Below, in pieces: positions 1,823 through 2,642 of a DNA stretch of 36,076 nt. The notes under the pieces are model-generated. The model worked only from the letters and a program-made list of their open reading frames with translations. It ran no database searches and was not told the DNA's origin. Made by a program: the position numbers and the translations under genes. The stretch covers positions 1 through 36,076 of the IMG/VR virus record IMGVR_UViG_3300032236_001771. The stretch is one strand, 5' to 3'. The stretch is from a virus. Each line of letters starts with the position of its first letter. The first letter of the stretch is position 1.

Positions 1823-1963
1823 ATGTCAAAGAGACCTTCATTAAGTGGTGGGAAGACAATTGAATCAAAGCCTAAAATAACTCGTCAAGGGAGATCTAAT
1901 AATACTAAGATAAGTGCTAGTAGTAGAAATGGTAAGAGAAAAAAATATAGAGGACAAGGTTAA
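1823..1963 (+). CDS. Small very basic protein (46 aa) ending KKYRGQG; not in the ORF track
   Basis: GGAG at 1810-1813, then MSKRPSLSGGKTIESKPKITRQGRSNNTKISASSRNGKRKKYRGQG-TAA. It sits between a consensus promoter and a terminator. The TRQG...SRN...YRGQG pattern is recalled from small cyanomyovirus genes upstream of gp25. Confidence 0.85.
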   Translation: MSKRPSLSGGKTIESKPKITRQGRSNNTKISASSRNGKRKKYRGQG

Positions 1964-1968
1964 TGTAT

Positions 1969-1993
1969 AAGGAGGTTAATAGCCTCCTTTTTT
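1969..1993 (+). terminator. Intrinsic terminator
   Basis: AAGGAGGT-TAATA-GCCTCCTT stem-loop with T6 at 1988-1993, 5 nt after the stop codon at 1963. Confidence 0.85.
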
Positions 1994-1996
1994 AGT

Positions 1997-2004
1997 AATA
2001 AATA
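1997..2004 (+). promoter_or_regulatory. T4-type (gp55) late promoter
   Basis: AATAAATA, intergenic, immediately after the terminator; one mismatch to the T4 late consensus TATAAATA. Confidence 0.65.
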
Positions 2005-2010
2005 ATTTAT

Positions 2011-2064
2011 GGAGATAGAAACCTCCTCTATAAAAGTTCTAATTTTATAGAGTTTTTTAGGAGG
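2011..2064 (+). ncRNA. Candidate structured 5' leader RNA (switch/pseudoknot-like)
   Basis: GGAG/CTCC stem (2011-14 with 2023-26); CTCTATAAAA/TTTTATAGAG stem (2026-35 with 2043-52); TAGAA (2016-20) complementary to TTCTA (2037-41); CCTCCT (2022-27) complementary to the SD AGGAGG (2059-64). Confidence 0.5.
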
Positions 2065-2069
2065 AATTT

Positions 2070-2222
2070 ATGAGTCCCGATAGAAATATTGAGATGATGA
2101 AGAAAGATTTTGGTACGGTATGTTTAATTACTGATTACAAATCAATAGAAATGATTAGATTGAAGGAAAGAAAAGAGAGAAATAAAGAAAGAATGGAAGC
2201 AGGTGATGCTTGGACGATATAA
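2070..2222 (+). CDS. Small hypothetical protein (50 aa); not in the ORF track
   Basis: Strong SD AGGAGG 5 nt before the ATG; MSPDRNIEMMKKDFGTVCLITDYKSIEMIRLKERKERNKERMEAGDAWTI-TAA; fills the gap before gp25. Confidence 0.8.
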   Translation: MSPDRNIEMMKKDFGTVCLITDYKSIEMIRLKERKERNKERMEAGDAWTI

Positions 2223-2225
2223 ATA
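2218..2225 (+). promoter_or_regulatory. T4-type late promoter for gp25-gp6
   Basis: Exact TATAAATA ending 21 bp before the gp25 ATG. Confidence 0.75.
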
Positions 2226-2246: not shown

Positions 2247-2642
2247 ATGGCAATTGTATCAAAAACTTTTATAGATTTTGGATTGTCATTACAGAGAAAT
2301 CCATTTTCAAATGATTTACAAATAATAAAAAATGAAGTTGCAATTAAACAGTCTTTATTTACATTAATTAAGACAAGTATCTATGAAAGACCTTTTAATC
2401 CATTAATTGGTTCAAGATTGCATAAGTTATTATTTGAAAATTTTGATAGCGGAATTGGTTCTGATATTGAAGATGAGATAAAAATATTAGTATCAAATTA
2501 TGAACCAAGAGTTATAATTAATTCAATTGATAGTTCTGATGATAGTGATAATAATGCATTAAATATTACGATTAATTACAGTATTATTGGGCAACCATTA
2601 AACCCACAATCATTAAATGTACTTTTAGAAAGAAGCTTCTGA
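2247..2642 (+). CDS. gp25: Baseplate wedge subunit gp25
   Basis: 131 aa with AIKQSL..LI.T..YERPFNP.IGS.L..LLFE ... NYEPRV, typical of GPW_gp25 proteins; directly precedes gp6. Confidence 0.93.
   Translation: MAIVSKTFIDFGLSLQRNPFSNDLQIIKNEVAIKQSLFTLIKTSIYERPFNPLIGSRLHKLLFENFDSGIGSDIEDEIKILVSNYEPRVIINSIDSSDDSDNNALNITINYSIIGQPLNPQSLNVLLERSF

Follow-up and report, generated by a model that had tools for sequence, protein, structure and literature searches.

Several groups of short structured RNAs can be compared with the phage leader described here. According to the available parts of PMC6546385 and PMC10520033, the coremin or xrRNA-C elements of beny- and cucumoviruses consist of a 4-bp first hairpin with a loop of 4-8 nt (YGAD or YGNNAD), a 10-nt spacer with three essential A residues, for which a pseudoknot-like contact with the loop has been proposed, and a second hairpin of free sequence directly behind. 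The preQ1-I riboswitches are, in the accessible text of PMC11625349, small H-type pseudoknots with an A-rich L3, a ligand-reading U at the start of L1, a specificity C and, in types II and III, an AC right before the P1 3' strand; they control access to the Shine-Dalgarno (SD) sequence, which is buried by the knot. Two related cases from T4-like phages are covered in the consulted portion of PMC3014915. The gene 32 operator of T4 and T2 is an H-type pseudoknot in an mRNA leader, which is bound by gp32, precedes an unstructured loading tract and serves translational control, while hairpins occluding the ribosome binding site (RBS) are tied to late promoters at gene e and I-TevI, where the late start removes the 5' arm of the hairpin. 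Finally, wcaG, manA, PhotoRC-II and glnA represent conserved cis-type RNAs of T4-like cyanophages (PMC2864571 and PMC9964418, as far as available). Nevertheless, riboswitch-like control is thought to be rare in phages in the part of PMC5473149 that was accessible.

Here, a window of 36,076 nucleotides was analysed, which represents the first 36 kb of a 135-kb contig of a T4-like cyanophage. It contains a 31-base leader that belongs to a real, conserved and uncatalogued family of pseudoknot-type elements, and this structured element very probably acts in some way on the translation of the small ORF behind it. The genome includes ORFs that we take, from our own reading of them, to encode gp23, gp55, RegA, gp32 and psbA, and an Rfam scan located wcaG and PhotoRC-II RNAs elsewhere in it. 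The leader itself matches none of the wcaG, manA, PhotoRC-II and glnA Rfam motifs, and the four ncRNAs listed for S-CREM1 in the accessible part of the source do not include it.

The leader, its promoter and its gene

The leader is placed between an ORF for a basic 46-aa protein, which is followed by a terminator-like hairpin, and a 50-aa ORF, behind which gp25 and gp6 are situated (Table 1). A first-pass annotation had proposed a riboswitch-like or pseudoknotted leader gating the small ORF at the head of the baseplate operon. The promoter box, the elements of the three alternative folds (A, the loop-tail pseudoknot; B, a 10-bp hairpin followed by U6; C, the pairing of CCUCCU with the SD), the SD and the ORF were all found where it had put them. 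The tail GUUCUA can pair with the loop if base 2019 is left out as a bulge.

Table 1. Features around the leader in the window (positions refer to the first base of the window)
Feature	Position	Strand	Basis or remark
46-aa Arg/Lys-rich ORF, phrog_516, function unknown	1823-1963	+	upstream neighbour, candidate RNA binder
Terminator-like hairpin with U-run, closes the upstream unit	1969-1993	+	sequence; 1966-1995 folds at -11.3 kcal/mol
Cyanophage late-promoter box AATAAATA	1997-2004	+	NATAAATA type, according to the available part of PMC2984593
Pseudoknot-type leader element, 31 bases	2011-2041	+	
P1 stem-loop	2011-2026	+	GGAG 2011-2014 / CUCC 2023-2026; 8-nt loop AUAGAAAC 2015-2022
Loop bases with separate roles	2015; 2019		2015, one-base L1; 2019, bulge, variable or absent
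A-rich linker L3	2027-2035	+	last four A invariant
Tail GUUCUA	2036-2041	+	P2 3' strand and 5' arm of the RBS-occluding hairpin of the family
Competing OFF fold of this phage (predicted)	2022-2064	+	hairpin 2026-2035/2043-2052 plus CCUCCU-SD pairing
10-bp hairpin, then U6	2026-2035/2043-2052; U6 2053-2058	+	
CCUCCU	2022-2027	+	complementary to AGGAGG 2059-2064
Shine-Dalgarno AGGAGG	2059-2064	+	sequence
50-aa ORF, phrog_1414 family, function unknown	2070-2222	+	likely regulated gene; ATG 2070
Second late box TATAAATA	2218-2225	+	serves gp25-gp6 independently of the leader
gp25 baseplate wedge gene	2247-2642	+	PF04965, phrog_261; probably outside leader control

Judged from the late box, the transcript would begin around 2010-2011, where P1 starts. 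Among 133 leaders, the box (TAAATA) ends 8-12 nt upstream of the loop in 57 and is not present within 40 nt in 74. The box sits farther from the loop when the element is longer, and this spacing points to a start at P1. A late box was not found in 72 of 126 leaders; by a crude assignment, an upstream ORF runs into the element or past it in 48 of these 72. Translational coupling could act instead in the leaders lacking the box.

Control of the baseplate operon, as initially proposed, did not find support, because gp25 has its own late box, which is present within 90 nt in 65 of 72 gp25 loci. Moreover, in S-CBWM1, which falls outside Kyanoviridae per its taxonomy line, the leader and the small ORF are found together between the terminase large subunit and PhoH (locus L520, 844-1059), away from the baseplate genes. 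Hence, the leader belongs to the small ORF. The proposed coupling to this ORF was borne out by the 72 gp25 loci with enough upstream DNA, of which 38 carry ORF and motif, 15 of the 53 ORF-bearing loci the ORF only, none the motif only, and 19 neither. The ORF is also present without the leader in S-PM2, S-ShM2 and S-TIM5; the S-TIM5 copy is a weak homologue located between nrdB and nrdA (locus L521, 886-1032).

The 50-aa ORF matches phrog_1414 (E 2e-10) and has 2,297 relatives. Searches for a Pfam family, a named Atlas match or a PDB fold match gave no result for this protein, its structural model shows two helices at a pLDDT of 74.9, and a protein-anchored search with it returned three loci, all of them chance. 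The leader also flags this unstudied protein family with more than 2,000 members as a presumably tightly dosed one. In the family alignment the small ORF is modular and variable, with C-terminal modules swapped behind a shared N-terminal motif; these modules are either of an acidic DDWEYG type or of a CGG..GFDD..ERW type and resemble linear binding motifs. The upstream 46-aa ORF (phrog_516), for which 449 phage records were found, is shared by almost all cyanomyoviruses; it ends with YRGQG and has been left unannotated in some records.

Two further observations concern the surrounding DNA. The arms of the upstream terminator, AGGAGG and CCUCCU (1969-1987), are identical to the SD and anti-SD of the leader (2022-2064), so that a read-through RNA could cross-pair. 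The regions 120-420 and 1200-1400 of the window are largely non-coding and contain direct repeats (320-405), inverted repeats and an A-tract, the GC content falling sharply afterwards; they possibly represent an origin or packaging region.

Conservation and covariation of the pseudoknot

The folding energy of the single leader is unremarkable (z -1.02), hence one sequence alone is no proof of structure, which is supplied by conservation. The combined loop and tail pattern occurs once in the window and in none of 100 shuffles, and it matched about 4,100 IMG/VR stretches, of which 120 were sampled. A P1 stem of at least three Watson-Crick pairs, which had not been part of the search, was present in 106 of these 120. 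With a stricter pattern, likewise not asking for the stem, it was found in 106 of 108 viral versus 8 of 121 cellular matches. When P1 pairs of any kind were counted, 108 sampled matches had at least three of them; sufficient downstream DNA was available for 69 and contained gp25 in 67. The 12 sampled matches without P1, eight of them with 1,200 nt downstream, were in no case followed by gp25. A pattern-free sample, the best 80 of 586 gp25-anchored loci, contained the motif in 38 according to both a structure-first scan and a covariance model, the latter with a gap of 40.8 versus 17.2 bits. On the gp25 tree, 11 gains or losses of the motif are required, nine of them forced by supported branches, which indicates that the motif is old and patchy. 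It occurs as a single copy in this genome and in five complete genomes. The similar leaders that the first-pass annotation mentioned for other cyanomyoviruses do exist at the same locus in Syn9, Syn30, S-CREM1 (95070-95130), DSL-LC02, DSL-LC03 and ACG-2014d.

Rfam gave no match in the window, also at a relaxed threshold, or in 20 homologous loci. Cyanobacterial genomes are at control level, with 24 matches in 401 genomes compared to about 26 in the control by our count, and the best covariance-model score across 151 genomes was 28 bits. Matches in cellular genomes generally behave as chance; a 28.7-bit match in a Prevotella MAG (L146/L501) had no ORF alongside and was set aside. No description of the motif was found in the literature, in which some supplements were unreadable and may list it. 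Its sequence is absent from the searchable supplements of PMC2864571 (one file incomplete) and PMC10690425 (alignments and diagrams excluded). However, 76 candidates in the accessible part of PMC10690425 have cyanobacterial hosts and the motif may be listed there, as it may be in the unread supplement of PMC5737381. About half of the T4-like cyanophage loci sampled here carry this very small, abundant and uncatalogued candidate switch architecture, and its occurrence in the cultured phages Syn9, S-CREM1, S-CRM01 and S-CBWM1 makes it testable at once.

The structure was compared among 133 distinct leaders with at least three P1 pairs and a following ORF (one without the ORF signature was dropped), 77 of which form the covariation alignment. 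The predicted model is an H-type pseudoknot with a P1 of 4-6 bp, a single A as L1, a P2 of six pairs, no L2 and an A-rich L3. Covariation is strong in P1, in which 98.1% of the aligned cells are paired, three of the four pairs show two-sided changes and two positions display four pair types among the 133 leaders. The loop-tail pairing suggested initially is 99.1% paired in the alignment, but its covariation is thin in cyanophages. Four of the six P2 pairs never vary there, and variants were therefore scanned for. The six pairs are in register, and the fifth loop position behaves like a bulge that accepts every base and may also be missing, as in six of the 133 leaders. Whenever loop A3 is changed, it is changed to G (85 of 85 family matches), with U opposite in 71 and C in 14. 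An A3 opposite C, i.e. an A-C mismatch at pair 3, was observed in 47 contigs, which correspond to 30 distinct leaders, whereas canonical cases number about 2,500 (about 2% against 16%); the mismatch outnumbers the 14 G-C cases. Loop G4 changed to A in three lineages; a U compensates for the change in two of them, and the third has an A-C mismatch at pair 4. Of the two compensated lineages, S-CRM01 changed two adjacent P2 pairs together and the other exchanged G-C for A-U, such that compensatory changes and mismatches occur side by side in an otherwise nearly invariant helix. A loop-to-tail span of 10 nt is shared by 112 of 133 leaders, whereas this phage has 13 nt. Only L1 and the four linker A are both unpaired and invariant; every aligned leader, also each of the 38 from the pattern-free sample, has A as its first loop base.

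The resemblance to preQ1-I that had been noted from the topology is partly justified. The leader shares the small H-type pseudoknot with A-rich L3, as supported by covariation and complementarity, the AC before the P1 3' strand and a predicted control via SD access. However, the first loop base is A in place of the ligand-reading U, and the counterpart of the specificity C is present and invariant but stands opposite an invariant G in helix register, this G being changed in none of the family matches of the variant scan. Moreover, the knot would free the SD and not bury it, and neither an Rfam match nor a queuosine gene was found (the ORF belongs to phrog_1414). Membership in preQ1-I was rejected because of the first loop base, the gene context and Rfam. 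A metabolite or ion riboswitch of the ON type more generally, with a preQ1-I-like pocket in which the loop-final AAC and the tail GUU form more than a plain helix, is conceivable, but we do not favour it and regard it as unlikely. Size and topology would fit, the core is invariant while the expression platform is variable, and the AAC/GUU pairs never vary, hence covariation cannot confirm their pairing. Nevertheless, the control-level frequency in cyanobacteria, the lack of a metabolic annotation for the ORF, the existence of copies lacking an expression platform (see below) and the reported rarity of riboswitches in phages speak against it. If the knot were held ON by a ligand, it would represent a riboswitch class that is specific to phages and has no counterpart in their hosts.

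The least probable of the readings considered here regards the loop as the target of a C4-type trans-acting antisense RNA, in the manner of c4-a1b1. A sequence in the consulted part of the PMC2864571 supplement does contain a hairpin one base off the commonest P1 stem-loop. However, 7-mer complements that track the bulge base within 1.1 kb were found 12 times versus 13.7 expected (85 loci), five genomes contain no shared non-coding complement and no C4 RNA was found in this genome. A trans-acting partner is thereby largely refuted, although a shorter or host-encoded one is still conceivable.

The competing fold over the ribosome binding site

Downstream of the pseudoknot, folding predictions identified a competing helix with a probability above 0.5 in all 133 leaders, versus 50% of shuffles, and the predicted unpaired probability of the RBS is 0.25 in leaders compared to 0.59 in shuffles. 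In 112 leaders a hairpin beginning at the tail is predicted that keeps P1, while in 14, including that of the window, a long alternative hairpin destroys P1, i.e. two unrelated architectures arrive at the same RBS occlusion. The pairs of the competing hairpin vary in type among leaders, and in 91 of them the tail C pairs 8-11 nt upstream of the AUG. Folds B and C of the first-pass annotation are thus predicted for this phage but represent the rarer type. Its statement that P1 and the RBS-occluding fold exclude each other agrees with the predicted folds. In the window, the OFF fold is calculated at about -12 kcal/mol versus -5.0 kcal/mol for P1 alone, and P1 has a probability of 0.001 in the nested ensemble; a forced tail-SD helix (2037-2042/2057-2062) is complementary in this phage as well. 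Folding of successive prefixes lets P1 form first, and the rival appears only after 2052-2064. According to a rough estimate that ignores tertiary contacts, the pseudoknot lies above the nested fold in all 133 leaders, by a median of 6.7 kcal/mol. Hence, OFF is the predicted resting state, and the lifetime of the pseudoknot could be too short without a binder.

Fold B had also been described as terminator-like, which would permit a transcription attenuator that terminates at the hairpin and U6 unless the pseudoknot forms. This is highly improbable. Besides the 10-bp hairpin with U6 of this phage, a U-run precedes the ATG in five leaders with the long alternative, but the hairpin is AU-rich (-8.8 kcal/mol) and runs of at least five U within 14 nt of the ATG occur in only 6 of 133 leaders, the U6 of the window lying just beyond this distance. 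Runs of U5-6 ahead of AGGAG are also found at two other late genes of this genome. The rarity of the run in leaders and its presence at other late genes make termination unlikely as a conserved output, and the combination of a conserved stable hairpin and U-run expected of an intrinsic terminator was not observed.

We rather propose, with a probability of roughly 40%, that the leader controls the small ORF as a translational folding-order switch, which passes from a pseudoknot ON state to an RBS-hairpin OFF state. P1 and subsequently the six-pair loop-tail helix would form once the 31 bases are transcribed, before the RBS exists. As long as this knot persists, the RBS would be accessible, and the newly made 5' end would be held within the structure and leave no single-stranded overhang, which likely slows 5'-to-3' decay. 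As soon as the RBS region is transcribed, the more stable hairpin would capture the tail and cover the RBS; in this phage it would take the P1 3' strand and the linker in place of the tail. The small protein might thereby be made in a short, limited burst per new late transcript, and no dedicated metabolite would be needed. The arrangement resembles the RBS-occluding hairpins of T4 late genes in its tie to a late promoter. However, in contrast to gene e and I-TevI, the late transcript would keep the whole hairpin, and the competing pseudoknot would provide the escape.

Alternatively, a phage protein, such as the basic 46-aa neighbour, gp32 or another late factor, could hold the pseudoknot and keep the RBS open. 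A stabiliser would help, because the OFF fold is predicted to be more stable in 133 of 133 leaders, gp32 of T4 binds a leader pseudoknot according to the accessible text of PMC3014915, and our reading of the ORFs includes gp32- and RegA-like genes in this genome. Of the 64 gp25 loci whose upstream DNA was long enough, 62 encode the 46-aa protein, namely all 32 with the motif but also 30 of the 32 without it, and this co-occurrence is therefore uninformative. The leader shares with the gene 32 operator the H-type fold, the position in a leader of a T4-like phage and a role in translation. However, it is a single-copy element at a small ORF, with none at gene 32 or 43, it has an RBS-occluding helix in place of the unstructured loading tract and its knot would correspond to ON. 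Since the giant-virus copies described below need no cyanophage protein either, a protein gate appears rather unlikely. A likeness to the gp43 operator with its UAAC and CAAC loops (available part of PMC3014915) was rejected, because no such hairpin precedes gene 43 here.

Copies between giant-virus tRNA genes

The same consensus was found between tandem tRNA genes, many of them on contigs of giant-virus MAGs (GVMAG). The scan for variants with A as the fourth loop base, which left the tail free, yielded 19 distinct tRNA-spacer copies as well; each of them has P1 and a U facing this A. A metagenome scan gave 92 distinct matches, 25 of which are adjacent to a tRNA; P1 and the span of 10 are present in 25 of 25 of these compared to P1 in 3 of the 67 others. 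The spacer copies begin 0-5 nt after the previous tRNA, are followed by the next tRNA 1-13 nt downstream and fill the spacer, without the bulge. Their tail is paired downstream in 3 of 36. Sixteen columns are invariant across the cyanophage and giant-virus groups in a 25-row alignment, which misplaces the bulge gap and was used for the invariant columns only. No Rfam match was obtained on the spacers of six tRNA-cluster loci. The likeness over 27 bases reflects homology or convergence. Examples are found in L569 (395-432 and 608-645), L577 (395-432 and 498-535), L630, L633, L579, L603 and others, with flanking tRNAs for Lys, Ile, Leu, Gln and Glu.

In both settings, which involve unrelated hosts, the knot would sit where a new 5' end is expected, at a late start or behind a tRNA 3' end. 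This position, together with almost no conserved unpaired base for a pocket, favours a shape-based element protecting the 5' end, and the fact that the spacer copies mostly lack a competing helix likewise supports a coremin-like, shape-based role over a metabolite pocket. Similarities to coremin include the first hairpin of mostly 4 bp, the loop size, the short spacer with its A run (four of them invariant in the leader), the contact between loop and sequences behind the hairpin and the structured RNA following directly. In contrast to coremin, the leader has an AURR(N)AAC loop that deviates from YGAD/YGNNAD, its loop-tail contact is of the Watson-Crick type and the hairpin further downstream is a rival of the knot that masks the RBS. 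The second hairpin of coremin corresponds to one overlapping the tail in the leaders and to the following tRNA in the giant-virus copies. Furthermore, the leader occurs in DNA phages and giant viruses, in which a block of exonucleases would be a presumed function.

It is very unlikely that the leader is such a decay roadblock only, with the downstream hairpin as the required second hairpin, a stable 5' end and no translational switching. The likeness to the coremin build and the spacer copies, which suit a block after tRNA 3' processing, are in its favour. However, the downstream hairpin reuses the loop-pairing bases and covers the RBS in nearly all leaders, it destroys P1 in 14 of them and the loop deviates from the coremin consensus. 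A self-cleaving or processing-guide RNA that cuts polycistronic transcripts is highly unlikely as well. Such an RNA might explain why the element fills whole tandem-tRNA spacers and is found where ORFs end in cyanophage loci without a promoter, but with 27-31 nt, a single pseudoknot and conserved bases that are almost all paired it does not look like one, its distance to the upstream tRNA varies and no Rfam ribozyme match was obtained. Even taken together, the attenuator, ribozyme and antisense-target readings are quite unlikely.

As a tentative extension of the folding-order switch, which we consider somewhat unlikely in this full form, one tiny pseudoknot family common to cyanophages and giant viruses might serve as a 5'-exonuclease block that in cyanophages has been wired to an RBS hairpin and is perhaps kept in its ON state by a small ligand or a protein of the phage. 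If true, it would be a 55-nt device coupling mRNA stability to translation. By recurring in giant-virus tRNA spacers, the element would connect the control of phage genes with compact RNAs that resist nucleases. Its Watson-Crick loop-tail helix could also serve as a simple model of the coremin type, of which no solved structure is reported in the consulted parts of the literature.

Two minor observations were made in the same material. A metagenome match in L666 (around 500-580) has a 4-bp P1 and a span of 10; the GC-rich sequence behind it looks structured but belongs neither to a tRNA nor to the ORF family. Finally, the tRNA clusters in L561-L778 contain a second spacer knot family of the same dimensions, which is represented by 19 distinct sequences and characterised by a GAC/GUC stem, an 8-nt loop, an AAAC linker and a covarying loop-tail complement.
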